Assembly (NCBI GenBank): GCA_048939015.1
Contig: JBHLPW010000060.1
Location: 1 to 28,349 of the forward strand
Length of the DNA: 28,349 nucleotides
Source of the DNA: Promethearchaeota archaeon
GTDB taxonomy: Archaea > Asgardarchaeota > Lokiarchaeia > Sigyniarchaeales > SOKP01
Direction of reading: 5' to 3'
In this document: in pieces, positions 1 through 24,471 of the stretch
How positions within the stretch are numbered: the first letter of the stretch is position 1
How the letters are laid out: each line of letters opens with the position of its first letter
The notes under the pieces: generated by a model
Seen by the model: the letters and a program-made list of their open reading frames with translations, nothing else
Databases searched by the model: none
Told to the model about the DNA's origin: nothing
Program-made: the position numbers and the translations under genes

Positions 1-3000
1 AGTCTGTTCACCAAATATTGTAATTGCTTGAATGAAGCCTGAAATGAGAATATTTTCTTCAAAATTGAATTCAGAAACATTTTTTGTGTAAATAGGCATT
101 CCACTATTTTTTTGAATAAGCATAATTCCTTGAATATTCTCTAAGTCTTTAAAGACTTGAATCTTATCTAGAAATTGTCTTTCTTTTTCTCTTTTCCTTG
201 GTAAATATATATAACTTCTTGCAATTAAGGCACCAAGAACTCCTATTATACATAATGCTATTATCGAGATAATCAAAACTAAACTATAATCTCCACCTGA
301 TTCTTGTAATACTACAATAAGAAAAGAAGATTCTGTATTTCTATAATATCCTCCTTCAACTGATATTAAAAGATTAATTCTAAGACTTCCCGATGCTTTA
401 CTTGGAATATCTAATTGAATTAGATAAGTCCCATCGCCTAAATTTTCAAATTCACCAAAACCGTACCTCCAGGTAAAAGTTATATTAGCATTAGTAATTA
501 AATCACCAGAATTTTGTTCACTCAAATTTATTTTAACTAATTGTGTGCTTCCAGCATATACATCTAGAGATTCTTCAAAACCTATAGTCCTCATTGAAAG
601 CTCTACTTGTTCTACTACTATTTTAATAATCTCTGAAAGAAAAACGTAGTTTTCTTTTTCAATGGAAACTGTTAAAAAATGAATCCCAATAGGCAGGAGT
701 CCTATACTTAGGATTGTATAATATTGTTGTCCATTTTCGTCTAAGATTCTTGAAATTCCTGATCCATTCAAATTTACTATCGCCCCAGAAATAAAAACAT
801 GAGTTAAAGAATCTTTATACAAAATAGTAATATTTAATATCTCATTCCATTGCATAGTTATAGTTTTTTCAGTTGTTTTGTCTTCTTGATTCAAATATAC
901 TTCTATATAAGTTGGATTCTCCTCTATTATTACATAAATGCTTTCAAATGCTGTTTGATATTCTGGATGACTTAATTGAAAGAATATTGCATAATTATCT
1001 ATCGAAAGTCCAACAGTTGAAAAATATACAATAAAACCATCAGTTACAGGAAAAATCGTATAGGATGATAGCCATGTGACATTTAATGTAGCTCCAGTAA
1101 TAATCTCACTTGTAGCTGCAATTGTAAAATTCACCTTTATATAAAAGCCATGATTTAACAATACATTAACAACCGTCTCATTTAAACTTACTGTTGTAGT
1201 AATAGGATTTACAATCACGCTAATAATTTCTGAAAGAAACAAAAAATCTTCTTTTTCAATTGTAATTGTTAAGAAATGAATTCCAACAGAGAGGGCCCCT
1301 GCGCTTAAATTAGTCTCATATTGTTGGCCACTTTCATCTAAGAGTCTTGAAATCCCTGAACCATTCAATGCCACTGTAGCACCCGGAATAAAATCATTGG
1401 TTAATGAATCCTTATACATAATAGTAATATTTAGATCCTCATCCGATAAAATTGTGATTGATTTTTGCATTGTCTTATCTGCTTGATTCAAATATAATTC
1501 GATATAAGTTGGATTTTCCTCTATAATTACAAATATGCTCTCGAAAGAGGTTTGATATTCTGGATGGCTTAATTGAAAGAATATTGAGTAGAAATCTACT
1601 GAAAGACTACTAGTAGAAAAGTGCACTATAAAACCATCAGCAACAGGAAAAATCGTATAGGATGATGGCCATGTGACATTTAAAGTAGCTCCACTAATAA
1701 TCTCACCCGTCGCTGCAATTGTATAATTCACCTTAATATAAAAGTCCCGATTTAATAGGACATTAATAATCGTCTCATTTAAACCTACCATTGTAGTAAT
1801 AGGATTTACAATTACGCTAATAATTTCTGAAATAAACATATGATTTTCTTTTTCAATTGTAATTGTTAAGAAATGAATTCCAATAGGTAAAGACCCTGCG
1901 CTTAAATTAGTCTCATATTGTTGGCCACTTTCATCTAAGAGTCTTGAAATCCCTGAACCATTCAATGCCACTGTAGCACCAGGAATAAAATCATTAGTTT
2001 TAGAGTCTTTAAAAAAAATAGTAACATTTAAATCCTCATTCGATTGGATTGTAATCGATTTTTCCATTGACTTATCTTCTTGATTCAAATAGATTTCAAT
2101 ATAATTTGGTTTTGAGGTTACACTTACAAATATACTTTTAAAAGCAGTTTGATATCCAGGATGACTTAATTGAAAAATTAACGTATAAATATCTATTGAA
2201 AGCCCACTAGTAGAAAGAAAAACTATGAAACCATCAGCAACGGGAGTAATCGTATAGGATGATACCCATGTCACATTTAATACGGCATCACTAATTATTT
2301 CGCCCGTTCCTGTTTCGGTATAATTTACTTTTAAATAAAAATTTTCGTTGAATACCACATTTACTTGAGATACATTTACTTTCACTGTGGCAGCTAAAGG
2401 TGTTATTTGCAAAGAAATATAACCTGTTATACTTCCATAATCAGTTTTATTAGCAAAAATAGTAACTGTATAAACTTCTGTAATACCTAAAGTTGGGAGA
2501 TTATATGTTGAAAAGTTAAGTTCATATACACCAGTACTAATATTTGTTACGGAATATGGATTCATCCAATCAGTAGTAATATTTGTATCACCCGGTAATA
2601 ATGCTCCTGAAATCGCTCCAGTAACATTTATCTGACAAATAGCATAATCATTTGCTATTGCATTGATAATATTATGCGGAACCTCTAATGCCAATGGTTG
2701 ATTTACTATTTTTAAATGTATTAGATTTCTTATTGATTGATTCTCATAGTAGCTTTTTGAAGCATTGAATGAAAAATAATAATCTCCAATTCCTAATCCA
2801 CTTGAATCAACATCGATAACATAGACTCCTGAACCAGTATAAGCCATATTTCCAGAAGTCCCGAAAGTCGAATTATAAGTTATTGTCGCAAAATCAATAT
2901 TTTGATTAAAATCTGAATCAACATATTTCACTCTAATTAAAAGGGGTTCTCCAGAAACCCTTTCTATATATGAATTTATAGCAGTGAGATTTGTATGATG

Positions 3001-4677
3001 CCATACATTAAAGGAAAATTGAGAAAATCCGATTTTATTTCTACTTAAATAAGATTGATCATTTGCCCATATTATACTTACTTGATATGTACCGACCGAC
3101 ATGTTATTTCCAACTATAAACTCGCCAAAATCTACATCATATAATAATGGTTCTTTTTGAATTTTCTTGAAAATTGTACCATTAGGATATTCAATTGTGC
3201 AGTTAATTTGCGTATTTGTTAAAGAAATTGTATTGTTTAAAGTTGCATCAATACGAAACTTATCACCATATGAAACACAGTATTCTTCATTATAGAATGT
3301 TCCATTCCAAACAACTATACTCCCTTTAGTAATATAATTTCGTCCATTTGCTTGAATCGACCATAAGCCAGGACCAAAACAATCCTGAGGAATTTTCAAA
3401 CTTGTTGATCCAAACTTACTTCCCGTGCAGCATCCTATTTTTTCCGTGTTATATCCATCTAAAATAGAAGTGATATTCCAGTCGTTTGGTTTATTTATCT
3501 TAGCCCAGTTATTTAAATAACCATAAGGAATTGAAAAAGAGCATTCTGTTTGCCAAATTATTTCATTATTTATAATATAAGTAGAACCTATTTGACCATC
3601 AATTGTAGAATTAAAAATTTTAACTGCTTCCGAAGTAATTGTTATATTATAAATTTCTAAATCTTCTACACCTGTAACATTTTCAGAAATCGTAAAAATT
3701 ACATCTGAAGTTCCTGTTCTTTGATGTTCAACATCAATAAAACTATACCCTTCTCCATATGTAGTTGGAGTGTAGCTATAATTCTCACTAAATTCGACAT
3801 CATAAGCCTTTACTAAATTAGAACTAATGGGTTTAGTCCAGATTTTAAATTCAACATTGTCAAATCGAATAAAATGATCTGCTGCTAGAACGGTAGTATC
3901 ATCATCAACAAAAACTCCCATTCTCACTGTAGCATTATCTGGTAAGGATTGACCTAAAACAATTGGATCATAGGTTATACTAGTTTTTGTCCAAGTATCT
4001 TGAACTAAATCTTTAAAGAGAATAGTATTATTAATCTCTTGTTCATTTATTTCTACTGAAAAAAATAGGCTAATGTTGTCTGGTATAGTTGGTCCGCCTT
4101 TTATATAATAATAGTCTAATGAAATTGAAGCTAATTTTTCTTCAGCAAACGTATCAGGAATGCTAATATTTTGTTCAAAATACGCAGATGTTTTAGCTGT
4201 TTTATCAAGAGTGTCTATTTGGATTTGAACATAACCTCCTGATTGCCATGGATTAATGGTGAGTTCGACTGGATCTTCGCTAAAATTACCCCACCCAGCA
4301 TCATTAGCAGTAAATGCTCCATTTGAGATCCAATCTTTTTGTTGGGCCACACCTTCATAAAGTATTGTTATATTTTTCGAAGTCCAGTCCTCTACTAAAG
4401 TGAAACTAACATTTCTAGGTAAAGTTGAGGGAAAAAAAGTATTAGAAATTGTGGCATGTTGATATATTAACAAAGGTTTTGCGTTTGGGGTATTTGAATT
4501 TATTTTAAGGTTTTTAAAATCATTAGTATTATCTTTAAATTGACTTTTATCATTTGAATTAATTACCGAAATTAAGGAATTATTAAAGTTTATAAAACTT
4601 AACAAAATTAAAATTGAAAATATAACAACTAATACGTGAATCCTTTTATTCTTTGAAGAATTGAGATTATAATTCAT
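1..4677 (-). CDS. Large single-pass membrane-anchored surface protein (>1559 aa, 3' end outside the window): N-terminal signal/anchor, beta-rich Ig-like ectodomain, TM helix, cytoplasmic longin/roadblock-like domain
   Basis: Hand-translated; absent from the ORF track because the stop lies beyond base 1. ATG at 4675-4677 (MNYNLNSSKNKRIHVLVVIFSILILLSF, basic then hydrophobic); upstream in-frame stop at 4693-4695; no stop seen in my reading of the frame. Many N-x-S/T sequons. TM YSLVLIISIIALCIIGVLGALIA (~223-288), then basic PRKREKER and tail IQGIMLIQKNSGMPIYTK...ENILISGFIQAITIFGEQT. Confidence 0.92.
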   Translation of the reverse strand, partial: MNYNLNSSKNKRIHVLVVIFSILILLSFINFNNSLISVINSNDKSQFKDNTNDFKNLKINSNTPNAKPLLIYQHATISNTFFPSTLPRNVSFTLVEDWTSKNITILYEGVAQQKDWISNGAFTANDAGWGNFSEDPVELTINPWQSGGYVQIQIDTLDKTAKTSAYFEQNISIPDTFAEEKLASISLDYYYIKGGPTIPDNISLFFSVEINEQEINNTILFKDLVQDTWTKTSITYDPIVLGQSLPDNATVRMGVFVDDDTTVLAADHFIRFDNVEFKIWTKPISSNLVKAYDVEFSENYSYTPTTYGEGYSFIDVEHQRTGTSDVIFTISENVTGVEDLEIYNITITSEAVKIFNSTIDGQIGSTYIINNEIIWQTECSFSIPYGYLNNWAKINKPNDWNITSILDGYNTEKIGCCTGSKFGSTSLKIPQDCFGPGLWSIQANGRNYITKGSIVVWNGTFYNEEYCVSYGDKFRIDATLNNTISLTNTQINCTIEYPNGTIFKKIQKEPLLYDVDFGEFIVGNNMSVGTYQVSIIWANDQSYLSRNKIGFSQFSFNVWHHTNLTAINSYIERVSGEPLLIRVKYVDSDFNQNIDFATITYNSTFGTSGNMAYTGSGVYVIDVDSSGLGIGDYYFSFNASKSYYENQSIRNLIHLKIVNQPLALEVPHNIINAIANDYAICQINVTGAISGALLPGDTNITTDWMNPYSVTNISTGVYELNFSTYNLPTLGITEVYTVTIFANKTDYGSITGYISLQITPLAATVKVNVSQVNVVFNENFYLKVNYTETGTGEIISDAVLNVTWVSSYTITPVADGFIVFLSTSGLSIDIYTLIFQLSHPGYQTAFKSIFVSVTSKPNYIEIYLNQEDKSMEKSITIQSNEDLNVTIFFKDSKTNDFIPGATVALNGSGISRLLDESGQQYETNLSAGSLPIGIHFLTITIEKENHMFISEIISVIVNPITTMVGLNETIINVLLNRDFYIKVNYTIAATGEIISGATLNVTWPSSYTIFPVADGFIVHFSTSSLSVDFYSIFFQLSHPEYQTSFESIFVIIEENPTYIELYLNQADKTMQKSITILSDEDLNITIMYKDSLTNDFIPGATVALNGSGISRLLDESGQQYETNLSAGALSVGIHFLTITIEKEDFLFLSEIISVIVNPITTTVSLNETVVNVLLNHGFYIKVNFTIAATSEIITGATLNVTWLSSYTIFPVTDGFIVYFSTVGLSIDNYAIFFQLSHPEYQTAFESIYVIIEENPTYIEVYLNQEDKTTEKTITMQWNEILNITILYKDSLTHVFISGAIVNLNGSGISRILDENGQQYYTILSIGLLPIGIHFLTVSIEKENYVFLSEIIKIVVEQVELSMRTIGFEESLDVYAGSTQLVKINLSEQNSGDLITNANITFTWRYGFGEFENLGDGTYLIQLDIPSKASGSLRINLLISVEGGYYRNTESSFLIVVLQESGGDYSLVLIISIIALCIIGVLGALIARSYIYLPRKREKERQFLDKIQVFKDLENIQGIMLIQKNSGMPIYTKNVSEFNFEENILISGFIQAITIFGEQT
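610..2400 (-). repeat. Three in-frame tandem repeats of 597 bp (199 aa), each two ~100-aa Ig-like modules
   Basis: Matching landmarks recur at a 597-bp period (taggatgat at 1061, 1658, 2255; ttgttg at 724, 1321, 1918). An 87-bp stretch is identical between 1297-1383 and 1894-1980. Protein motifs LNVTWxSSY, FQLSHPxYQT and GIHFLT occur in each unit. Confidence 0.93.
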
Positions 4678-6255: not shown

Positions 6256-7299
6256 ATGAAGTTTAGTTTCCATATCCCTGTCCCTACACCTCGGCTTGAA
6301 TATATGTTTCAAGGAACAAAAATGGCTGAAGAATGTGGGTTTTTTGGTGTTTTTTATGCAGATCACACCGTAATGTTACCTCCGGGTCCAGGAACATGTT
6401 ATGATGCTTATTGCTTTTTAACTTCATTAGCAATGATAACAAAAAAAATAAAATTATGTACAGGTGTTTCTGATTGTCATCGATTTCATCCAGCATTAAT
6501 GGCACACAAAGTTGCAACTTTAGACCAAATATCTAATGGAAGAGGCATGATAGGACTTGGAGCGGGAGAAGCAATGAATATTGACATGTACGGTATCGAA
6601 AGAAAGAATTCTGTATCAAAATTGCGAGAATATATTATCTTATTGAGAGAATTCTGGACGAAGAAAAAAGTAAGTAAAAAAAGTGAATTCTGGGGAGAAA
6701 TTAAAAAAGCTTATATTCAGATAAAACCTGTTCAGAAGACACCTCCTATTTATGTCGCTGCCAATGGCCCAAAAACCCGTAAACTGACTGGAGAATTAGC
6801 AAATGGTTGGTATCCACTTTATCAACCCCCTTGGCTCTATAAAGAGAAACAAAAAGAGGTTTCTGATTCAGCAAAAGCAACAGGTCGAGATCCAAATGAA
6901 ATTGATTATGTATACGATTGTTTTGTGGCTATTGATGATAAGGACCCTGATAATGCTATTAAAAGATGTGAATTCTTTAAAACCTCTTATCTATTGAATT
7001 CGTTCATTACGAATGAAGCCTATCCAAAATTAGATTTACCGGAAGATTTTAGTGTTCATGATTTTGAAATGACTAGTGTCAATTCAATGGATTACCTAAA
7101 CAATTTAGATAAATTACCTGATACAATTTTACAAGATACGAATTGCCTAGGTACTGTTGATGATGTAATTGCGAGTATAGAAAAATATAAAGAAGCAGGA
7201 GCGACACATATGAGTTTGATGAATAGAGGACCTGATACTAATAAAGTATATGAAATTTTTCGAGATAAAATAATACCTTATTTTGAAGAATTAGACTAA
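6256..7299 (+). CDS. LLM-class flavin/F420-dependent oxidoreductase
   Basis: YADH, HPALMAHKVATLDQISNGRGMIGLGAGE, PPIYVAANGP, ANGWYP, GTVDDV. Divergent from the first LLM gene; 4-bp convergent overlap with the GNAT gene. Confidence 0.88.
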   Translation: MKFSFHIPVPTPRLEYMFQGTKMAEECGFFGVFYADHTVMLPPGPGTCYDAYCFLTSLAMITKKIKLCTGVSDCHRFHPALMAHKVATLDQISNGRGMIGLGAGEAMNIDMYGIERKNSVSKLREYIILLREFWTKKKVSKKSEFWGEIKKAYIQIKPVQKTPPIYVAANGPKTRKLTGELANGWYPLYQPPWLYKEKQKEVSDSAKATGRDPNEIDYVYDCFVAIDDKDPDNAIKRCEFFKTSYLLNSFITNEAYPKLDLPEDFSVHDFEMTSVNSMDYLNNLDKLPDTILQDTNCLGTVDDVIASIEKYKEAGATHMSLMNRGPDTNKVYEIFRDKIIPYFEELD

Positions 7300-7841
7300 A
7301 TCTTCTCCTTTTTTTTCCATTCTTCGGCTAAAATACTCATTATAATTGCATCATGATATGCTCCCTTGGAAAACATAAATTTCCGTCTTCGCCCCTCTTC
7401 AATAAATCCGATTTTTTTATAGGTTTTTATTGCTCTTACATTATAATCATAGACTTGTAATTCGATTCTGTTTAAATTTACTGTGTTAAAACCATATTCT
7501 AATAAAAGTTCAATTGCCTCAGTACCATATCCCTTGTTTTGATACTCTTTTTCTCCAATTGTAATTCCAATTTCTGCCGATCTATTCTTCCAATCTATTC
7601 TATGTATCCCACAGTTGCCAATTAGCTTCTCTGACCCATCTTCATTTGGAAGTGTAATAGCTAAATGAATAGTATCCTCTCTATCTTTTAATTTCTCTAG
7701 CCAGTCCTCTTCTTCCATTCTCGTCATTGGACGATACATGACCAGATATTGAATGATTTCTGGATCATTGAACCACTTTAGGAAAGAATCTATATAATTC
7801 TTTTTAATCGGTCCCAACCTTACTCTCTCTCCCTTTAACAT
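7296..7841 (-). CDS. GNAT N-acetyltransferase, RimJ/RimL family
   Basis: AEIGITIGEKEYQNKGYGTEA (acetyl-CoA motif A), LNRIEL, NVRAIKTYKKIGFIEEG. Confidence 0.92.
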   Translation of the reverse strand: MLKGERVRLGPIKKNYIDSFLKWFNDPEIIQYLVMYRPMTRMEEEDWLEKLKDREDTIHLAITLPNEDGSEKLIGNCGIHRIDWKNRSAEIGITIGEKEYQNKGYGTEAIELLLEYGFNTVNLNRIELQVYDYNVRAIKTYKKIGFIEEGRRRKFMFSKGAYHDAIIMSILAEEWKKKEKI

Positions 7842-7919
7842 GAAAATTGTAAATTTACATTACAATAAAAAATTATGCTTTTTAATTACTTTTAATTTTA
7901 AAAAGAGAAAAAATGAGGA

Positions 7920-10835
7920 TTAAAATTCAATACTTCTTCTACGAGCTATCCATTTTACTATCTCAAATGAAACGATGCAGATTAAAGAAATCAAGAAGCA
8001 TACCAACCAATCCATTCCTGTTAAAGGTATAAACATAAAATTGATTCCTAATTCTTCGGCTAAGAAAATTTGCACTCCAGGAATGTATAGTAAAGCAATA
8101 AACAGAAAGAATAATAAGCCAATTAGCACATACATAAATTTATTACTATCTTCGATAAGACTCTTTATTAAAGATTTATTTGGTCTTCTAATCTGGAATA
8201 CTAGAAAACTTTCACAGAAGTATAGAACACACATCATCATTGTCAGGCTTTTACCTATAGTTCTAATCACATTTAATTGTTGAGCGGCCTCGGCATACAT
8301 GACTGCTGGAATATCATATACATGCGGTGGTATTAAAGTATCATCATAATATAGATATCCTGGGACAAGGTTTTCGGGAAAAACAGGATATACTCCTGTT
8401 ATAGTTAAAAAGTAGACTATCATCATGCTTAGAGACAGAAAAGCACCGAATATTAATAAAAGTCTAGATGTATTTTTTGAGAGAATCTCTTCTGAATCTC
8501 TAGGTTTTTGCTTCATCACATCTTTTGAAGTTGTATCAAATGTTAGTATTAAACCGGGAAATATATGCAAAGTCAATGAAAGAAAAGCCCACTGATAATA
8601 AAACGCTTCATCTAAGAAATAGGGTAAATCTAATATAATTGCTAAGATAAACTGAACAATACCTTCAAACACATTGATACAAATATAAAAAAACACAACC
8701 GCACGAATCCTCGCGAATATTCCTCTCCCTTGTTCAATACCTGAAACGATAGAATTAAAAGAATCATCTGAAATTACCATATCTGAAGCTTCTTTTGCCA
8801 CATCAGTTCCTGTGATACCCATAGCTACTCCCGCATCAGCCATATTTAATGCTAAAGCATCATTTACACCATCCCCTGTCATAGCAACAACTTTCTTCTG
8901 CTCTTGATATTTTTCTACAATATCTTCCTTGTGTTCGGGGGATACACGAGCAAAAACCTTAATCCGGCTGAACTCATCATATGTTTTAATGTTTTTAACT
9001 TCTTTCCCTTCTACAGCTATTTCACTAGGATCACTTATTATAGAAATTTGTGATGCAATAGCTCTTGCCGTAGCGGGGGAATCCCCTGTAATCATTACTA
9101 CATCAACTCCTGCTTCATGACACTCTTCTACAGATTCTTTTACTCCTTCCCTTGGAGGATCTAAAATTGTCACAAAACCAATATAAGTCAAATTTGATTC
9201 ACTTATTTTTCTTCCCTCATCTCCTTCTGGAGGTATCTCCATCATTTCTTTGTAGCATAAACTTAAAATTCTATAACCTTGACTAGCATATAAGTCTACA
9301 ATCTCTAAGATTTTCTTCTTTATTTCATCTGTGAATGAGATTTCGCTATCATTATATAATACTTTTGAACAGAGAGGTATTAGAATTTCACTTGCTCCCT
9401 TTGTATAGGAAAGATATACTTGATCTTTTTTATATACCTTAGACATTCGTTTCAAAGAAGAATCAAACGGATATTCGGTAATAGCCTCATAATCTTCAAG
9501 AAGATAATCGCCCATTCCTTTTTGAAATAATACCATTAGTGCTCCTTCTGTGGGAGAGCCAATCACATTCCAATTATAGATTGTTTTTCCTCCGATTTCA
9601 ATTTCATTTTTTACTAAAGCAGAATTATTATTTAAAAAACCAGCTGTTAATAGTAGTTTAAGATGTGGGTATTCATTAATATGTTTAACATAAATATGAT
9701 TTTTAGGGTCATCCATAAGTACAATATCTCCATCAGGAGTGTACCCACTGCCTGTGACTCTAAAAATCGATCCATTTGTCCAGACATGTTGAATACTCAT
9801 TTGATTCTTAGTTAATGTGCCTGTTTTATCTGAACATACAACACTTACACGCCCTAAACTGTCAACTGAAGCAAGGTTCCTTATTATCACACCACGATGA
9901 GCCATTGCAAGAACTCCAGTTATTAAAACTATAGTAACTAATAATGGTATATTGATCGGCATAAGATCAAGTGCAGAATTTAAACTTTCAACAATTTCGG
10001 GTGACCCTCTAGCACCCCAGATAATCAATAATGTAATAAACCAAAAAATGAAAACAATAATCCCTAACCATTTGCCAAAATTATTCATTTTTTGCCGAAT
10101 TGGAATCTCACTTGTTCCCGCTTCTTCTAAACCATGAGAAATTTTCCCAATTTCTGTATTTCCACCAGTTTTTACTACAATCGATTTTCCTGTCCCTGTA
10201 GAAATAAATGTGCCATAAAATACCATATTGTTCCGTTCTCCTATAGAAATTTCACTTTTTTTCAACGCATCTCCTGATTCTAATTTTCTTACAGGTTCAC
10301 TTTCTCCCGTTAAAGATGCTTCATTTACCACAAGATTAAACGACTTTATTATTCTGGCATCAGCAGGGATTTTATCCCCTTGACTTAATACTAGTAGATC
10401 ACCTACAACAATCTCTTTGGTTGGAACCTCTATCTTCTGTCCATCTCTTACTATCGTTGATGTAAGAGCCGTTAATTCGCGTAAAGCCTTAAGCTTTTTA
10501 GTAGCACGATATTGTTGGATAATTGCAACCACACAATTTAGAAGAACGATGAACAAAGTCAATGCAACAGTAATTAAATCTCCCTCTCCACCAATAGCCC
10601 ATGCCAAAATTAGAATTAACGCCCCAATAAGGTATATGACTATTAACCAATTAAATAACGGCGCAAGATATATTTTAATAAAACCTTTAGAAACTTTGGG
10701 GATTTCATTCAAACCGTATTCGTCTAATCTATTCGCAGCTTCTTTTACAGATAAACCCTTCTCAGGATCTGTTTGAAATTCTTTATAGATTTCGTTTAAT
10801 TCAATATTATAATAAGCCTTTTCTGTAGATTCCAT
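7920..10835 (-). CDS. P-type ATPase, P2-like scaffold with non-canonical transport site (M4 PINIP)
   Basis: TGES, CSDKTGTLT, KGASE, DPPR, MITGD, AMTGDGVND, ~10 hydrophobic helices. M4 LMPINIP in place of AIPEGLP; M6 LTLHIFP in place of LVTDGLP. Confidence 0.95.
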   Translation of the reverse strand: MESTEKAYYNIELNEIYKEFQTDPEKGLSVKEAANRLDEYGLNEIPKVSKGFIKIYLAPLFNWLIVIYLIGALILILAWAIGGEGDLITVALTLFIVLLNCVVAIIQQYRATKKLKALRELTALTSTIVRDGQKIEVPTKEIVVGDLLVLSQGDKIPADARIIKSFNLVVNEASLTGESEPVRKLESGDALKKSEISIGERNNMVFYGTFISTGTGKSIVVKTGGNTEIGKISHGLEEAGTSEIPIRQKMNNFGKWLGIIVFIFWFITLLIIWGARGSPEIVESLNSALDLMPINIPLLVTIVLITGVLAMAHRGVIIRNLASVDSLGRVSVVCSDKTGTLTKNQMSIQHVWTNGSIFRVTGSGYTPDGDIVLMDDPKNHIYVKHINEYPHLKLLLTAGFLNNNSALVKNEIEIGGKTIYNWNVIGSPTEGALMVLFQKGMGDYLLEDYEAITEYPFDSSLKRMSKVYKKDQVYLSYTKGASEILIPLCSKVLYNDSEISFTDEIKKKILEIVDLYASQGYRILSLCYKEMMEIPPEGDEGRKISESNLTYIGFVTILDPPREGVKESVEECHEAGVDVVMITGDSPATARAIASQISIISDPSEIAVEGKEVKNIKTYDEFSRIKVFARVSPEHKEDIVEKYQEQKKVVAMTGDGVNDALALNMADAGVAMGITGTDVAKEASDMVISDDSFNSIVSGIEQGRGIFARIRAVVFFYICINVFEGIVQFILAIILDLPYFLDEAFYYQWAFLSLTLHIFPGLILTFDTTSKDVMKQKPRDSEEILSKNTSRLLLIFGAFLSLSMMIVYFLTITGVYPVFPENLVPGYLYYDDTLIPPHVYDIPAVMYAEAAQQLNVIRTIGKSLTMMMCVLYFCESFLVFQIRRPNKSLIKSLIEDSNKFMYVLIGLLFFLFIALLYIPGVQIFLAEELGINFMFIPLTGMDWLVCFLISLICIVSFEIVKWIARRRSIEF

Positions 10836-10956
10836 AATAAGTCTTCCATGATTTTTTAATATAAAGAAAGCATAATTACAGTTGAAATTTCAATGTAATA
10901 AATAACCTATAATAATCATAATTTAAAAAATTAGATATTTATTTTCAAGAAGGATA

Positions 10957-13827
10957 TTAGAATTGTATATTCCTTTCTCGAGCAATGTATTTAAATATTT
11001 CAATACCAATAATTCCAGGTAAAGCAAATAATATGCAGATTATCCAATCTGTTCCGCTAAGGAACATAAAATTTATTTGTAAATCTAGCCCGAAAACATC
11101 ATTTACATAGTGATTAACAAGATATGAAAATGTAATATAGAGAATATGCAATATAAACGTAAACAAACATATGAACAGTAAAGAAAAGCTAAATTCTTCC
11201 TTCAGACTTCTATAGAGAGATTTATTTGGTCTTCTAAATGTCCAAATAAAATTGGTTTCGAGGATGAAAATTGTAGTAATAAACATAGTTCTTGCTTTTT
11301 GTGCTACCAATTCAGAATAAGGACTGGCTGGATTAATATAACTAATAACAGGATTAAGATTCCAATTATTCAATGGTATTATTTGCCATAACGTTAATTG
11401 TAAAACTAAAACTAATCCAAGTCCCATAAGAAAGGCTTGAATTAATAACATTATCCACATATTTTTATTTAATATTTGTTCTTCATCTCTAGGTGGTTCA
11501 AACATAATATCCTTAGGGTGAGTATCAATTACTAATGCTAAGGAAGGAAGAGAATGCACAACTCCGAAGATATAAATATGTTGCCATTCTGAACTAAAAA
11601 GATCAAATGTCGGTATGAATTCATATGTAAAAAAGATAATAGCTTCCATTATATTTAAACATATAAAAAAATAGATAATTGTCCTAATTTTTGAAAATAA
11701 ACCACGTCCAATTCTAACACCTTTTTCAATAGAAGTAAAGTTATCATCTGAAATGACCATATCAGCCGTTTCTTTTGCCACATCTGTTCCAGTAATACCC
11801 ATAGCTATGCCTGCATTAGCCAGTTTTAAAGCTAGTGAATCATTAATTCCATCACCTGTCATAGCAACTACCTGTTTTTTATTTTGATAATATCTGACGA
11901 TGATTTCCTTATCTGTTGGCTCTACACGAGCGAAAACTGAGACCTTTTCAAGATCTAAATTTGTGGAATCTTTCAATTGAGAACCTTCGACAACAGTATC
12001 TCCTTCTTTGAAAATACCCATTTGTGATGCAATAGTCTTCGCAGTAGCCGGATGATCACCGGTAATCATAATGACTTTAATTTTTCCATTTTGGCATTGT
12101 TCTACAGATTCTTTAACACCATTTCTTGGAGGATCCATAATCGATACAAATCCTAATAAAATCAGATCCTTTTCTACATCTTCTCTTGTAGGTGTATTAA
12201 TATCAGAAAGTTTATTGTAAGCTAATGCAAGAGTTCTATAACCTTCATTTGCACGAAATTCTATCAAATCCAATATGTCTTTCCTTAAAATAGAATCTAA
12301 TAATTTTATGTTTCCATTAATTTCAATTCTTGACGATAGGTTGATGAGCTTTTCTGGTGCTCCCTTAGAAAATACAAAAACATCATCTGTATTGTTATTG
12401 GATCTACAAATGGTACTCATACGTTTTAATTCCGAGGTAAATGAAAATTCATTAATAAATTCATATTTCTTTTTTATATCGTATGGGATATATCCTGCTT
12501 TCTCAACAAGTACTAATAGAGAAGCTTCAGTTGGTGATCCTAATGCTCGCCTTACCGCCATTTCTTTTTTATCTTTCAATTTAATTTTAACATCTTCAAA
12601 TATAAGTTGAGCATTATTATTTAGCACCATTGAATCTATTAAGTTAACAAATGAAGGATTCTCTTTCAAACTGATAGGACTACTATTATAATAGATTTCT
12701 CCTTCAGAATCGTACCCAGAACCTGAAACATTATATTCATCTTCATTGATCCAAAATTTTTCAACTGTCATTTCATTTTTGGTTATTGTCCCTGTTTTAT
12801 CTGAACAAATTACAGATACTCGACCAAGTGATTCTATTGATGACAGATTCTTGATAATGACTCCTCTTTGAGCCATGTTAAGAACTCCAGTTATCAATAC
12901 TAATGTTGATAATATAGGGAGATTAATTGGCAAAATATTAGTAGCCCTTAATATAGAACTAACGAGAGCACCACTTATTTCTGATTGAATAAAATTGCCT
13001 TCAATTGCCAACAAAGAAAATTTGTAAATAATCAAGATTATCAAATTAATTAGAACAATTGTTCCTAAAATATACCCTAATCTATTTAATTTTCTCGTAA
13101 GTGGGATATCTTCAATACTTCCCATTTCATTAAGTGTTTCAGATATTCTTCCGATCTCTGTATTAATACCTGTGCCAGTAATTAATGCTTTTGCTCTCCC
13201 TGTATATACATATGTTCCCATAAATAGCATATTCGATTGTTTTTGTATTAAAACATTTTTTTCTTGAATTTCCTCAGTTGTTTTTTCTACTGGTTCACTT
13301 TCTCCAGTCAGAGGAGCTTCATCAACTGAAAGATTAATGTGACTTATAATTCTCCCATCCGCGGGAACTTTATCTCCTTGTTCTAATACCATAATATCTC
13401 CTGGAACTAAATCTCTATTAGGTACTTCGAGTTGATTTCCATCTCTAATTATTGTTGCTTTTAGTGCGGAAATCCTATGTAATGATTCTAATGCTTTCTG
13501 AGCGCGAAATTGTTGAATAACAACCGTTGCAGAATTCAAAAATACAACTGTGAACGTAATAATTGTGTCTTCAGCGGAACCCAAAATTACTATAATTACA
13601 CCTGTTATAATAAGAATTAGAATTAAGAAGTTGAAAATCGGAGCTAAATATATTTTCCAAATTGATTTTTTTATCTTTGGTAATTCATTATATCCATATT
13701 TTAAATAAATTTCATTTAATTGTGATGATTTTAAACCATGGCTTACATCAGTATTGAAAATTTTAATTAGGTTTTCAATAGGTTGATTATAATAAGGGAT
13801 TTCACTTCGTATATCTGATAATGACAT
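10957..13827 (-). CDS. P-type ATPase paralogue, P2-like scaffold with non-canonical transport site (M4 PINLP)
   Basis: TGES, CSDKTGTIT, KGAPE, DPPR, MITGD, AMTGDGIND, DDNF. M4 NILPINLP; M6 GVVHSLP. Confidence 0.95.
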   Translation of the reverse strand: MSLSDIRSEIPYYNQPIENLIKIFNTDVSHGLKSSQLNEIYLKYGYNELPKIKKSIWKIYLAPIFNFLILILIITGVIIVILGSAEDTIITFTVVFLNSATVVIQQFRAQKALESLHRISALKATIIRDGNQLEVPNRDLVPGDIMVLEQGDKVPADGRIISHINLSVDEAPLTGESEPVEKTTEEIQEKNVLIQKQSNMLFMGTYVYTGRAKALITGTGINTEIGRISETLNEMGSIEDIPLTRKLNRLGYILGTIVLINLIILIIYKFSLLAIEGNFIQSEISGALVSSILRATNILPINLPILSTLVLITGVLNMAQRGVIIKNLSSIESLGRVSVICSDKTGTITKNEMTVEKFWINEDEYNVSGSGYDSEGEIYYNSSPISLKENPSFVNLIDSMVLNNNAQLIFEDVKIKLKDKKEMAVRRALGSPTEASLLVLVEKAGYIPYDIKKKYEFINEFSFTSELKRMSTICRSNNNTDDVFVFSKGAPEKLINLSSRIEINGNIKLLDSILRKDILDLIEFRANEGYRTLALAYNKLSDINTPTREDVEKDLILLGFVSIMDPPRNGVKESVEQCQNGKIKVIMITGDHPATAKTIASQMGIFKEGDTVVEGSQLKDSTNLDLEKVSVFARVEPTDKEIIVRYYQNKKQVVAMTGDGINDSLALKLANAGIAMGITGTDVAKETADMVISDDNFTSIEKGVRIGRGLFSKIRTIIYFFICLNIMEAIIFFTYEFIPTFDLFSSEWQHIYIFGVVHSLPSLALVIDTHPKDIMFEPPRDEEQILNKNMWIMLLIQAFLMGLGLVLVLQLTLWQIIPLNNWNLNPVISYINPASPYSELVAQKARTMFITTIFILETNFIWTFRRPNKSLYRSLKEEFSFSLLFICLFTFILHILYITFSYLVNHYVNDVFGLDLQINFMFLSGTDWIICILFALPGIIGIEIFKYIARERNIQF

Positions 13828-13919
13828 CTTAATTATTTAAATAATAAATCTAATATAGATATTATTTAATATAGTTTTAAAGGTATAAATGTATTTAATT
13901 TGGGAAAAATGCATTTAGA

Positions 13920-14882
13920 TTATACTTTAAGTTCTTGAGGGCTTCCCAATAAATCTTTTAAAACATGATATTTCTTTCTAATAGTGGTACTTGAAAATTT
14001 ACTAGTTTTTTCTACTAGACTTTGAGTGAAAATCTTCCTATTGTCAAGTGTTTGTCCAATATAATAGATTAAGCCCGCAGTAAATGCTTTATAGTTAAGA
14101 TTCTGAATTTGGCTATACGGAATTTTATTCAATATTTTATCTGCTAATAATAACATTTCGATTTTAATTTTTTCATATTCAATCTTTTCAGAAAAGAACT
14201 CCTGAACTTCATTGTATGGTATATTATTTATATCTTTTTGAAAAACAATCTTTATTCTACTTTTTATCTCATTTTCGATATCTGCAATTGTTTTTTTCTC
14301 CTTTAACATATTCTCAGTTCTTTTCACTTTCAGCATTGCATTATTCAACATCTTTTTATTTATCTTGTGTCCCAATTCTCTCGAGACTTTAATGAATTGC
14401 TCTATTCTAATGTGAGTAGTATCCTTTATACGCATCCATACGATTGCGAGAAAAATTATTATCATATTTTGGTAATTATGTCGATGGTATTTATTATATT
14501 TTAGATATCTATCCTTAATTTCTTTAAATATTACGTTATCTATGTTCAATCCGATACTATGGCTCTTTAATAATTCAATAGTCTTCTTTTGCTCAGTAAA
14601 TTCACTTTCATAATCACGGAACCATTTTTCAAGAGTCTTAATTCTCTCATATTTTTCTTTAATCACAGGATCTTGGAGAGCTTTAGAATCACTTATCCTA
14701 ATTCTTCTTTCATAGTCTCTTTGTGAATCTGTAAAGAAGTCACTTGTAGAACTAGTATTTTCAAAAGTTTTACCATCCATTATTAGACCACAATCTTGAC
14801 AAACAACAAATCCTTTGTCTTGTTTGACGTTTCTATGTGGACATTCAGAGATTTCTGGTGCTAAATTCTTCTTATTCTTCAA
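13920..14882 (-). CDS. Highly divergent TFIIB/TFB-like protein (Zn ribbon plus cyclin-fold repeats)
   Basis: N-terminal CPH...VCQDCG zinc ribbon. C-terminal AFTAGLIYYIG...FTQSLVEKTSKFSSTTIRKKY parallels the TFB second cyclin repeat/HTH (AAAxxYIA...TQxxVA...EVTIRxRY). TTG start. Confidence 0.75.
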   Translation of the reverse strand: MKNKKNLAPEISECPHRNVKQDKGFVVCQDCGLIMDGKTFENTSSTSDFFTDSQRDYERRIRISDSKALQDPVIKEKYERIKTLEKWFRDYESEFTEQKKTIELLKSHSIGLNIDNVIFKEIKDRYLKYNKYHRHNYQNMIIIFLAIVWMRIKDTTHIRIEQFIKVSRELGHKINKKMLNNAMLKVKRTENMLKEKKTIADIENEIKSRIKIVFQKDINNIPYNEVQEFFSEKIEYEKIKIEMLLLADKILNKIPYSQIQNLNYKAFTAGLIYYIGQTLDNRKIFTQSLVEKTSKFSSTTIRKKYHVLKDLLGSPQELKV

Positions 14883-15034
14883 AAAATAATCAATTTAAAT
14901 TGTTTAATTATGATTAACTAGAATATGGGTAAAAAACAATAATATTAAAAATTTTTATTAATTTCAAAAACAATAATAAGATTAATTGCATAAAAAATTT
15001 TCTTGCTTTTTTAAAGAATTTAAGTGTATTAAAT

Positions 15035-15595
15035 ATGATATATGAAAAAGTGTTGAAATTTCTCAAAATCATTGGTTCTATATTCATTCTTATTTCTTTG
15101 GTCGAAATCATCTTTATTATTTTGATGAATTTTGTTTATTTTTCTATTGATGGGAGTTTTTACTTACTAACTGAAATAGTTTATTCTTCTACATTGTTTT
15201 CATTTTCAGGAACTTTATTATGGTTATTTCTGATAAGTGCTATGGCTTGCTATGCAATTATAGGCCTATTTATGTTCAAAACAGGATCGAAGAGTGATAT
15301 CGAAAGTATTCCATTAGCAAAGTTTCTTGTTGTTATTGGCATGGTAATTTTGTTAGCGGGATTTGTCAAAATGAACTATTTAGTAAATTTAGGAAAGACA
15401 AGAATTACTTCAACTATAACTACTGTTACTTTTCAAACTGCTCTCTATGATATGAATATTACACCAATAATGCCTGGTGTATTTTGGGTGTTTTTCATAT
15501 CAGCAAATATCGCTATTCTAATTTCTGGATTAGCTATAACCGCTATTGGCATAAAATATACTCTTCAGCAAGAGCAAGAAGTTAAAGAAAAATAG
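15035..15595 (+). CDS. Hypothetical integral membrane protein, about 4 TM helices
   Basis: Four long hydrophobic segments and a short charged C-tail; no recognised motif. Confidence 0.8.
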   Translation: MIYEKVLKFLKIIGSIFILISLVEIIFIILMNFVYFSIDGSFYLLTEIVYSSTLFSFSGTLLWLFLISAMACYAIIGLFMFKTGSKSDIESIPLAKFLVVIGMVILLAGFVKMNYLVNLGKTRITSTITTVTFQTALYDMNITPIMPGVFWVFFISANIAILISGLAITAIGIKYTLQQEQEVKEK

Positions 15596-15621
15596 ATATT
15601 TTAAAAAATATAAAAAATATA

Positions 15622-16557
15622 TTAAATTAGTTTACTTTTAATCTGTTTGGCACGACTTCGCAAAGTCACTTCCGTAATCTTTGCAATCTCTGCTACGCGT
15701 GATTGAGTCTTGCGAATGCATCCATTCTTAGCAGCTATGTAAATACAAGCTGCGGCTAGTCCCTTCGGATCTTTTCCTGTTCGTTTAAGACCATTTTTAG
15801 AAGCATCTCTAAGCATATTAATTGCATTTTTCTGAATTTGAATTGGAAGGTCTAACTCATTACCAAATCGAAAAACTAAACTTTCAGCAGTAATTGGTTG
15901 ATATCTTAAATTTAGCTCTGGTAATACTTCACGAATAATCATAGCTAAACTTCTATGAACTGTTCGCCGTGGTGTTAATGATGCTTCACATATCTCATCT
16001 AATAATCGTGGGAAATCATGAACTCTAATTGCAGCATATAAAGATCCAGATATAAAACCATTGATAGACCTTCCCATGGTTAGTTTCTTTTTTGCTACAA
16101 TACTGTATATTTTCCATGCTGTTTCAGCTATATACTCAGGAATGTTAAGTTTTGAAGTCAGCATTTTTAGTTTTGGTTTTGCTTCCCAAAAATTGCGCTC
16201 TATACTTGAAATTAATGAATTTTGAATTTTTGAAAGGCGAGAAAAAAGGGCTTGTTCTTTTGCGCCAATTGATTTACCTTTACTATCTGTTTTTGTGTTC
16301 GGAAGCATTGTCCTCGGTCCAAAGTCTCTCCAACGCGGTTCAGTCCTACGCCTGTTTTGAATCTCTTCTATTGTATACGCACGTCTCTCATTACCCACAA
16401 ATGTTCTTTCAAAAATTACACCGCAGTTTAAACATACTTTATTTCCATCTCGTGACTCAATAAATGGATTACTACAGCACTCTGTTTGGGGTAGTCGATT
16501 TTCATCAAAATTTTTATTTACAAGACGAGATCGATACTGTTCATATTGTTCATTCAT
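15622..16557 (-). CDS. tfb: Transcription initiation factor IIB (TFB) paralogue
   Basis: Zn ribbon CCSNP...CLNCG, B-reader-like GNERRAY, SIERN linker, GRS and GKDPKGLAAACIYIA cyclin repeats, TQSRVAEIAKITEVTLRSR HTH. ATG at 16557 preferred over the GTG at 16599. Confidence 0.92.
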   Translation of the reverse strand: MNEQYEQYRSRLVNKNFDENRLPQTECCSNPFIESRDGNKVCLNCGVIFERTFVGNERRAYTIEEIQNRRRTEPRWRDFGPRTMLPNTKTDSKGKSIGAKEQALFSRLSKIQNSLISSIERNFWEAKPKLKMLTSKLNIPEYIAETAWKIYSIVAKKKLTMGRSINGFISGSLYAAIRVHDFPRLLDEICEASLTPRRTVHRSLAMIIREVLPELNLRYQPITAESLVFRFGNELDLPIQIQKNAINMLRDASKNGLKRTGKDPKGLAAACIYIAAKNGCIRKTQSRVAEIAKITEVTLRSRAKQIKSKLI

Positions 16558-16660
16558 AATTAAATTCAAGCAAAAATTTTCTAAAAGACGATTTATCACA
16601 GATATTAAAAAATCTTAATAATGTCTTAATATACGTGATATGCTTATATACGAAAATCGA

Positions 16661-22740: not shown

Positions 22741-24471
22741 ATGAAAATTGTAAGAATAAATGTAGAGAATGAAAATATTCGATTTGATGAAATAACTCTA
22801 GATTCAAAATATTTCCTACTTGGAGCAAGGGGTCTCAGTTCTCAGATTGTTCACGATGAGGTTCCTCCCTTATGTGATCCTTTAGGAAAAGAAAACAAAT
22901 TAATTCTTGCTAATGGTGTTCTAGCAGGTAGTCCCTTTCCCTGTTCTGCTCGTACTTCAGTGGGAGCAAAAAGTCCCTTGACCAATGGGATTAAAGAAGC
23001 CAATGTTGGTGGAAGACCTGCCATGATGCTAGCAAGACATGGCATAAGAGCACTTGTCTTAGAAGAAAAAGCCTCAACTCTAAAATATATCTTAATTGAT
23101 GAAGAAGGGATTAAAATTCTACCTGCAAATGAATATAAGGGTCTAGGGAATTATGAACTTCATTCCAAATTAAAAGAAAAATATGGAGAAAAAATTGGTA
23201 TTTACTCTATTGGACCAGCAGGTGAATATCTGATGAAATCTGCAACTATTGGAGCAAATGATTTGGAAGGATACCCCAGTAGACATGCTGCGAGAGGTGG
23301 TATAGGGGCGGTAATGGGTTCTAAAAAAGTTAAAGCAATAGTGACCACACCCCCAAAAACTTCCAAAGTAGAAATGTATGATATTAAAAGATTCAGAGAA
23401 GTTTCGACTCCTTTTTCAAAAGAATTAGCGAAAACTAAGGAGAGATTTTCAATATTCGGCACACCTATGATGATGGCAGCTATGAGTGGATATGGAGGTA
23501 TTCCAACTATGAACTTTCGTAGGGGATCATATGATAAAATTGAAAATATATCCGGAGAAAAACTCCATGAACTTGTAACTACGAGAGGAGGCAAAAAGAG
23601 ACTAGCTTGTTCTCCCACATGTGTAATAAAATGTTCAAACTTAGTTGTTAATGAGCAAGGGGATCATATAACATCAAGTTTAGAATATGAAACTATGGCT
23701 TTAAATGGCAGTAACTTGATGATTGATGATTTAGATAGTTTAGCTAAAATTGATCATTTATGCGATGATTTGGGTATTGATACAATCGAGTTTGGTGGAA
23801 CTATGGGTGTAGCTATGGATTGCGGTAAAATTGAATGGGGAAATGCTGTAAAAACCTTCGATATTTTAGACAATCAAATTCGAAATAATACAGAAGAAGG
23901 ACGTTTATATGGCAATGGCGTTAAAATAATTGGAGAGAAGCTTAATGCAAAACGAATTCCTCAAGTTAAAGGACAAGGAATTTCGGCTTATGATAGTAGA
24001 GTTTTTAAAGCGATGGGAGCTACTTATGCTACATCACCAATGGGAGCAGATCATACTGCGGGAGCAGCAATCGCCAACCGAGTCCCAAGTTTGCATAAAG
24101 ATTATGGAGAATTAACAAAAAATGAAAATAAACTCGATTTATCATTTGAACTACAAATTTACACAGCAATAATGGATTCAATGGGATGTTGTTATTTTAT
24201 TGGACCAAGCTACGAAAACATGGAAATATTGGCAAATGCAATTAATGCTATGTATAATTTGTCTCTTACAAGAGACGATGTAATTAAAATTGGTATTGAC
24301 ATCATAAGAACTGAACTCGCATTTAATGAAAGAGCAGGTATTACTCCAGAAATGAATGATCTTCCAAAATTTTTCAGAGAAGAAGCGTCAGATCCAATTA
24401 ATTTGAAATTTACTTTCGAAGTAGATGAATTAAAATCTTTTTGGAACAGATTGAACAAACATACGTTTTAA
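22741..24471 (+). CDS. aor: Tungsten-pterin aldehyde:ferredoxin oxidoreductase family protein
   Basis: KSPLTNGIKEANVGG, IGPAGE, RHAARGGIGAVMGSK, CSPTCVIKC, EYET, DDLGIDT, GADH, DSMGCC. Confidence 0.92.
   Translation: MKIVRINVENENIRFDEITLDSKYFLLGARGLSSQIVHDEVPPLCDPLGKENKLILANGVLAGSPFPCSARTSVGAKSPLTNGIKEANVGGRPAMMLARHGIRALVLEEKASTLKYILIDEEGIKILPANEYKGLGNYELHSKLKEKYGEKIGIYSIGPAGEYLMKSATIGANDLEGYPSRHAARGGIGAVMGSKKVKAIVTTPPKTSKVEMYDIKRFREVSTPFSKELAKTKERFSIFGTPMMMAAMSGYGGIPTMNFRRGSYDKIENISGEKLHELVTTRGGKKRLACSPTCVIKCSNLVVNEQGDHITSSLEYETMALNGSNLMIDDLDSLAKIDHLCDDLGIDTIEFGGTMGVAMDCGKIEWGNAVKTFDILDNQIRNNTEEGRLYGNGVKIIGEKLNAKRIPQVKGQGISAYDSRVFKAMGATYATSPMGADHTAGAAIANRVPSLHKDYGELTKNENKLDLSFELQIYTAIMDSMGCCYFIGPSYENMEILANAINAMYNLSLTRDDVIKIGIDIIRTELAFNERAGITPEMNDLPKFFREEASDPINLKFTFEVDELKSFWNRLNKHTF

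Follow-up and report, generated by a model that had tools for sequence, protein, structure and literature searches.

Tandem P-type ATPases with a PxNxP motif in M4 and a histidine in M6 point to a P2-type subfamily in Asgard archaea

A 28,349-nucleotide stretch of a Promethearchaeota archaeon genome (contig JBHLPW010000060.1 of GenBank assembly GCA_048939015.1; hereafter the window) encodes two neighboring P-type ATPases, gene 1 (P0001) and gene 2 (P0002), in which isoleucine occupies the position of the glutamate that binds Ca2+ in the fourth transmembrane helix (M4) of Ca2+ pumps, and asparagine follows it. What kind of pump carries such a motif, and what does it transport? A first-pass annotation, made from the sequence alone, had proposed that the pair are active pumps of a possibly undescribed class which are unlikely to move Ca2+, Na+ or K+ by the canonical route, may carry lipids or organic substrates, and could be stem relatives of the P4 lipid flippases or convergent with them. 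Our analysis suggests a different answer: gene 1 and gene 2 are probably paralogues in a P2-type subfamily derived from ordinary PEGL-type (PMR1/SERCA-like) pumps, and the conserved membrane residues lead us to favor a small cation other than Ca2+, or a proton, as the substrate.

The M4 motif and the membrane residues linked to it

Both proteins have the full type-II architecture in Pfam (Cation_ATPase_N, E1-E2_ATPase, Cation_ATPase, Hydrolase and Cation_ATPase_C), and they share 42% identity across their whole length. The four catalytic motifs TGES, DKTGT, KGAxE and TGDGxND were all re-located at their exact coordinates, one copy each per gene, and vary little or not at all in the family; judged from these intact motifs, both genes look like active P-type ATPases, as had been proposed. 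M4 reads DLMPINIP in gene 1 and NILPINLP in gene 2, and the first proline of the motif lies 43 residues before the phosphorylated Asp, a spacing that the first-pass annotation had given for gene 1 and that is true of both genes (P293/D336 and P300/D343). Its placement of Ile on the ion-binding E309 position of SERCA was likewise borne out, as HMMER lays P-I-N-I-P over P-E-A-L-S of the Listeria Ca2+-ATPase. The Asn or Asp that it had pointed to three residues before the proline is present in the pair (Asp in gene 1, Asn in gene 2), but this position, 290, varies family-wide among D, S, N, K, T and A.

A search of a library of 1.84 billion cluster representatives at 50% identity retrieved about 40 clusters in which M4 has the form P-[ILVFW]-N-[ILF]-[PV], and clusters of this PxNxP type occupy nearly all of the top 35 or so ranks, above clusters with PEGLP. 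We aligned 157 members of the family (residue numbers below are those of gene 1) and, for comparison, 32 PxNxP-type cluster proteins with 97 PEGLP proteins. Position 294 is I, L, V, F or W in every one of the 157 family sequences, whereas it is Glu in 97 of 97 proteins of the PEGLP comparison group. On either side of it P293 is conserved at 100% and N295 at 98%, and the second M4 proline is retained in 150 of the 157 sequences. The PIN-type M4 is a family signature rather than a chance occurrence.

The motif is linked to changes in other helices. In M6, the Asp of the PEGLP group is replaced by His (H757, 99%, 156/157), and its Asn, the equivalent of SERCA N796, is lost, position 753 being S, T, A, Y, F or G in the family; Q748 in the same helix is conserved at 99%. 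By contrast, the N..E pair of M5 (N721, 96%; E724, 100%) and the Glu of M8 (E875, 99%) are kept. Additionally, M2 carries Q108 where the PEGLP group has the Glu of a QE pair, and TGES in the A domain is intact, 156 of the 157 members having its Thr. M4, M5, M6 and M8 together hold a new group of polar residues that is under strong purifying conservation.

These equivalences were read from HMMER alignments. In the alignment to Listeria LMCA1, the Ca2+-binding Glu is matched by I294 and the M6 Asp by H757. Against Na,K-ATPase (4xe5), N721/E724 correspond to N776/E779, S753/H757 to D804/D808, and E875 to D926, residues which we take to be the counterparts of SERCA N768/E771, N796/D800 and E908, respectively. 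The alignment to 4xe5 came from a PDB search with gene 1 residues 640-971; a PDB search with residues 700-971 alone gave no match. A 64-sequence alignment gives the same residue equivalences.

The sole clear deviant of the family is P0147, a JGI metagenome protein of 993 amino acids, in which M4 reads PVSIP and the M5 Asn, M6 His and M8 Glu are replaced together by Ser, Phe and Gln. N295, N721, H757 and E875 are thereby all lost and the catalytic motifs remain. Their joint loss is a hint that these residues act as a unit; P0147 itself may represent a second retargeting or a decaying copy.

Placement among the P-type ATPases

In the FastTree phylogeny, the 99 PEGLP rows and the 35 PxNxP-type rows fall without exception on opposite sides of a long and fully supported branch. 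The IQ-TREE phylogeny (LG+G4, quick search) was rooted with the CPC-type P1B pump and the P3A-type pump (PVALP) of the same genome; all P2 sequences, the PxNxP clade included, stand apart from P3A and P1B with a support of 97, and the PxNxP clade is monophyletic (support 100) within a poorly resolved P2 radiation that includes Na,K-like archaeal sequences. In both trees gene 2 groups with P0137, P0135 and P0136 and not with gene 1. The two genes of the tandem pair come from different, old subclades of the subfamily.

The top NCBIfam models for both proteins are of PMR1/SERCA types at 434-487 bits, but the two fall by a wide margin under every equivalog cut-off: TIGR01522 gives 445-487 bits (cut-off 798) and TIGR01116 434-450 bits (cut-off 703), followed by the P3A model TIGR01647 with 327-341 bits (cut-off 615) and the P5 model TIGR01657 with 240-253 bits (cut-off 618). 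The P4 model TIGR01652 yields only fragmentary matches of 105-110 bits (cut-off 431), and it does no better on gene 1 and gene 2 than on the PEGL pump of the same genome or on 12 control prokaryotes. An AlphaFold2 model of gene 1, built on the family alignment, reached a predicted local distance difference test score (pLDDT) of 82.5 and a predicted template modeling score (pTM) of 0.76. When it was compared with the PDB by Foldseek, the top 50 matches were all SPCA1, SERCA, H,K-ATPase or Na,K-ATPase, with no P4 or P5 structure among them, and its look-alikes in the ESM Atlas were prokaryotic P2-type clusters only.

The nearest known class is therefore P2A, whose Ca2+-ATPases (PMR1/SPCA, SERCA and Listeria LMCA1) are the best profile, sequence and fold matches of the family. 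The two have in common the order of domains, the TGES and KGAxE motifs, an M4 of the form P-x-x-x-P, the ten-helix layout of the C-terminal part and a place in the P2 radiation. They differ in that the family has a hydrophobic residue for the M4 Glu and Asn for the Gly after it, lacks the M6 Asn, has His for the M6 Asp, and has Gln for the Glu of the M2 QE pair. Because the defining features of the P2A site and the curated cut-offs are both failed, the family should not be filed as a Ca2+-ATPase. P3A H+-ATPases, known from plants and fungi and present in this genome in an archaeal form, share with it a hydrophobic residue behind the first M4 proline (PVALP in the copy of the same genome) and a single protonatable residue at the M6 Asp position; however, they combine Asp in M6, the proton acceptor, with Arg in M5, whereas the family has His in M6 and Asn and Glu in M5, and in the tree the P3A copy of this genome branches outside the P2 sequences as a whole. 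The P6 type, represented by CtpE of Mycobacterium tuberculosis (PMC10654040), also consists of prokaryotic P2-like relatives in which the M6 Asp is lost, but in CtpE the PEGL motif is retained and the M6 residue is Ile, while in the family PEGL is lost and M6 has His.

The literature, searched by keyword and by motif string, yielded no description of the PxNxP clade. The suggestion of a distinct class thus stands as regards a clade that is defined by its motif and apparently constitutes an undescribed P2 subfamily. A 2023 review of the superfamily holds that the diversity of prokaryotic P-type ATPases is still undescribed, with only one family added since 1998 (PMC10654040).

Two other departures from the usual P2 layout were seen among the sequences collected. 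L025 and P0247 form a small, strongly supported bacterial clade in the Na,K-like group, with PQALP in M4 and ...LLAE.LP in M6, a non-canonical P2 site. P0172, P0222, P0234 and P0244 are 1549-1706 amino acids long; the C-terminal half matches an entire P2 pump in the library search, and the M4 before the first DKTGT has no PEGL. They look like two fused P-type ATPase modules in one polypeptide.

The putative substrate site and the competing readings

Since the catalytic machinery is intact in DKTGT, TGES, KGAxE and TGDGxND, the enzymes should run a normal E1/E2 phospho-enzyme cycle. Within the membrane, site II of SERCA appears to be dismantled: the equivalent of E309 is I/L/V/F/W, that of N796 is S/T/A/Y/F/G and that of D800 is His, and we take the site to be abolished because all three are replaced. 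The proposal that the canonical Ca2+ route is lost is upheld by the replacement of both the E309 and the D800 equivalents. M4 would keep its unwound P-x-x-x-P form, and three of the five ligands of site I would remain (the equivalents of N768, E771 and E908), with the M6 His and the M4 Asn in addition. The pump may accordingly be pictured with one internal site to which two Glu, one His and two Asn contribute, plus main-chain carbonyls of the unwound M4. Such His/carboxylate chemistry would best fit a divalent transition metal (Mn2+, Fe2+, Zn2+, Co2+ or Ni2+) or a proton, and the His/Glu cluster might alternatively serve as a proton relay. Na+ or K+ would be a less likely cargo, and Ca2+ is unlikely. 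What is transported, and in which direction, is a matter of inference, as is the joining of the five residues in one site.

Several points weigh against a small cation or proton as the substrate of a P2-derived pump. P4 and P5 sequences are absent from the trees. Neighboring genes in the window and at other Asgard loci, as well as the Rfam scan, gave no sign of a metal-responsive regulator, a chaperone or a riboswitch near the pumps, and a metal-binding tail is not evident in the sequence. The main caveat is that built-in counter-charges exist in related pumps, as Lys791 in H,K-ATPase and as Arg in LMCA1, and the His placed between two Glu could be a counter-charge that silences the site and leaves room for a non-ionic substrate. 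We consider it improbable that the family carries no inorganic ion at all, with the His and Glu residues forming a charge network and the hydrophobic M4 gate accommodating some large substrate such as a lipid head group. If this were true, the family would be a prokaryotic counterpart of the P4 and P5 "large-substrate" pumps known from eukaryotes only, perhaps even their precursor, and it would bear on the origin of the eukaryotic flippases. The same 2023 review lists both P4 and P5 as eukaryote-only (PMC10654040).

The first-pass annotation had leaned toward such a substrate, and a flippase-like pump for lipids or other bulky or hydrophobic molecules, convergent with or ancestral to the eukaryotic P4-ATPases, has some features in its favor. 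P4 flippases have an M4 of the P-I-S-L type, in which the gate residue is hydrophobic and proline occurs once; the family likewise has a hydrophobic residue in place of the gating M4 Glu (Ile at the E309 position in P4), followed by a small polar one (P-I-N, compared with P-I-S), the M6 Asp is absent from both, and the family occurs in the archaeal group nearest to eukaryotes. Cdc50 (PF03381), the beta subunit that goes with P4A pumps, was not found in the genome, and the control genomes are silent too; since P4B flippases require no Cdc50 subunit (PMC10654040), a missing partner is no argument against lipids. We nevertheless regard lipid transport as unlikely. The likeness to P4 seen here is confined to Ile at the E309 position and the absent M6 Asp. 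The clade is nested within the P2 radiation, in a tree that is rooted with P3A and P1B and holds no P4 or P5. Its A domain carries TGES and not the Asp-containing motif of P4 (DGET type; PMC10654040), its P4 model scores are on the level of ordinary prokaryotic pumps, and its 50 best fold matches are of P2 type. The second M4 proline is retained, the upstream Asn is unconserved, and the E309 position is hydrophobic in the P3A-type copy that this genome encodes as well. The buried Glu residues of M5 and M8 are conserved at 99-100%, and the buried site-I set of N721, E724 and E875 at 96-100%, which fits ion or proton binding. Neither the non-cation substrate nor the stem relationship and link to P4 flippases drew support from these results.

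An ordinary Ca2+ (or Ca2+/Mn2+) efflux pump with unusual ligands is what the databases annotate, and PMR1/SPCA and SERCA are the best profile and fold matches; sources label family proteins "Ca2+-transporting ATPase", and orthologues of a "putative Ca2+ ATPase" were reported in all five Asgard proteomes studied in a transportome paper (PMC7997004); these may or may not be members of the PxNxP family. We would give this explanation little credence, because the M4 Glu and M6 Asp, near-universal in the PEGL-type pumps compared, are replaced in 99-100% of members, the scores lie far under every Ca2+-ATPase equivalog cut-off, and a canonical PEGL/N..D pump is already present in the genome. In terms of general coordination chemistry, His is also a poor ligand for Ca2+. 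By analogy with P5B one could instead imagine a pump for organic cations such as polyamines, in which the two buried Glu bind amines and aromatic residues give cation-pi contacts: the acidic residues of M5 and M8 are kept while the metal-type site II is lost, and a number of subclades repeatedly have Y, F or W at positions 294, 747 and 753. This seems very improbable to us, given that P5 ATPases have PP(D/E/A)LP in M4 where the family reads MPINIP or LPINLP, with no PPxLP motif, that the P5 model score is far from its cut-off (240-253 against 618 bits), that P5 structures are absent from the best fold matches, and that polyamine genes were not found nearby. Finally, the non-canonical substrate site might suggest a non-transporting ATPase (a sensor or scaffold, for example) or a decaying pump. 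Strong conservation of both the catalytic and the new site residues across the 157 members, the presence of the family in most Asgard genomes searched and the two intact reading frames leave hardly any room for this. We prefer the reading of a P2-type pump that moves a proton or some small cation, but not Ca2+.

The locus, its neighborhood and the distribution of the family

The two genes lie head to tail on the minus strand (Table 1). Judged by eye from the AT-rich spacer, each probably has a separate promoter.

Table 1. Positions of the two pump genes, the spacer and their catalytic and membrane motifs in the window
Feature	Positions	Strand	Length	Remarks
Gene 1 (P0001)	7920-10835	minus	971 aa	probable P2-type P-type ATPase, PxNxP/His subfamily; full-length open frame
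Gene 1 TGES	10299-10310	minus		
Gene 1 M4 PINIP	9945-9959	minus		Ile294 at SERCA E309 position, Asn295 at G310
Gene 1 DKTGT (D336)	9816-9830	minus		phosphorylation motif
Gene 1 KGASE	9387-9401	minus		
Gene 1 TGDGVND	8859-8879	minus		
Gene 1 M5 NVFE (N721/E724)	8664-8675	minus		aligned with Na,K-ATPase N776/E779; both residues kept
Gene 1 M6 LHIFP (H757)	8556-8570	minus		His replaces M6 Asp (Na,K-ATPase D808)
Gene 1 M8 FCES (E875)	8208-8219	minus		aligned with Na,K-ATPase D926
Spacer between gene 1 and gene 2	10836-10956	minus	121 bp	AT-rich
Gene 2 (P0002)	10957-13827	minus	956 aa	paralogue of gene 1; full-length open frame
Gene 2 TGES	13297-13308	minus		
Gene 2 M4 PINLP	12916-12930	minus		
Gene 2 DKTGT (D343)	12787-12801	minus		phosphorylation motif
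Gene 2 KGAPE	12352-12366	minus		
Gene 2 TGDGIND	11839-11859	minus		
Gene 2 M5 NIME (N725/E728)	11644-11655	minus		
Gene 2 M6 VHSLP (H758)	11545-11559	minus		
Gene 2 M8 ILET (E857)	11254-11265	minus		

The window genes that flank the pumps encode luciferase-like monooxygenases, a GNAT protein and TFIIB-like proteins. Across 17 loci from other Asgard genomes the ATPase alone is common to all, and the neighbors that are conserved, within one taxonomic family, are unrelated to transport (ketopantoate hydroxymethyltransferase, subtilase, MFS and others). Neither the window nor these 17 loci yielded a beta subunit, a chaperone or a metal regulator among the neighbors, and an Rfam scan of positions 7000-15700 gave no match.

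Of the other genes in the window, two TFIIB-related ones lie just upstream of the pumps on the minus strand. The one at 15622-16599 is a clear TFIIB by Pfam; the other, at 13920-14882, encodes 320 amino acids with no Pfam match, starts with a C-x-H...C-x-x-C zinc-ribbon-like motif and may be a divergent TFB paralogue. An open frame of more than 1559 amino acids (1-4677, minus strand) runs off the window; its sole Pfam match is a faint Ig-like Big_11, and its product may be a surface protein. At 24475-26454 (minus strand), a 659-amino-acid open reading frame without a Pfam match adjoins the gene for an aldehyde:ferredoxin oxidoreductase (22741-24471).

The same genome also encodes a canonical PEGL P2 pump (N..E/N..D/E), a P1B pump of CPC type and a pump of P3A type; the tandem pair therefore appears as an addition to the standard set and not as a replacement. 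The P3A-type ATPase (G000:C72:45152-47194, plus strand, locus L084) is 821 amino acids long and has PVALP in M4, Arg in M5 and Asp in M6. The function of the archaeal "H+-ATPase-like" P3A type is still undetermined (PMC10654040).

Homologues with a PIN-type M4 were gathered and their taxonomy was mapped, as the first-pass annotation had advised; they form a conserved clade whose members with a taxon name are Asgard bar one metagenome-assembled genome (MAG) labelled Korarchaeota. The Asgard members carry Loki-, Thor-, Hel-, Hod-, Odin-, Heimdall-, Hermod- and Promethearchaeota labels. Since the family profile gives PEGLP pumps from other archaea as many as 864 bits, membership was granted to very high scores alone: a match above about 1000 bits was found in roughly 200 of the 301 Asgard genomes searched, as counted by eye. 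Ten other families, sampled at one genome each, had PEGLP-type pumps only. A contig scan with the family alignment and generic patterns was uninformative on taxonomy, all 80 loci among the matches listed being of PEGLP type. A single copy is present in each of five closed or nearly closed genomes that belong to other families, and the tandem pair was found again within the window's own taxonomic family (loci L108 and L109).

The member labelled Korarchaeota (L110 12548-13129; GCA_012974725.1, contig JABAHQ010001742.1) has a PINIV variant of the motif and the M6 His. On its contig, a small GTPase of the Arf/Ras/Roc family is encoded two genes from the pump gene, which suggests an Asgard origin for this MAG; it may be a mislabelled Asgard archaeon.

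A few residues in M4, M5, M6 and M8 set the specificity of P-type ATPases. A large and strongly conserved clade in which M4 has a hydrophobic residue followed by Asn, M6 has His and the Glu residues of site I are kept is a natural experiment in the retargeting of a Ca2+-type pump, and it would add to the superfamily an orphan subfamily with a clear and testable signature. Database names for the family proteins are "cation-translocating" or "Ca2+-transporting" ATPases. As the family is common in Asgard archaea and yet annotated as a Ca2+ pump, inferences about Asgard "Ca2+ signalling" may rest in part on proteins that probably do not bind Ca2+.

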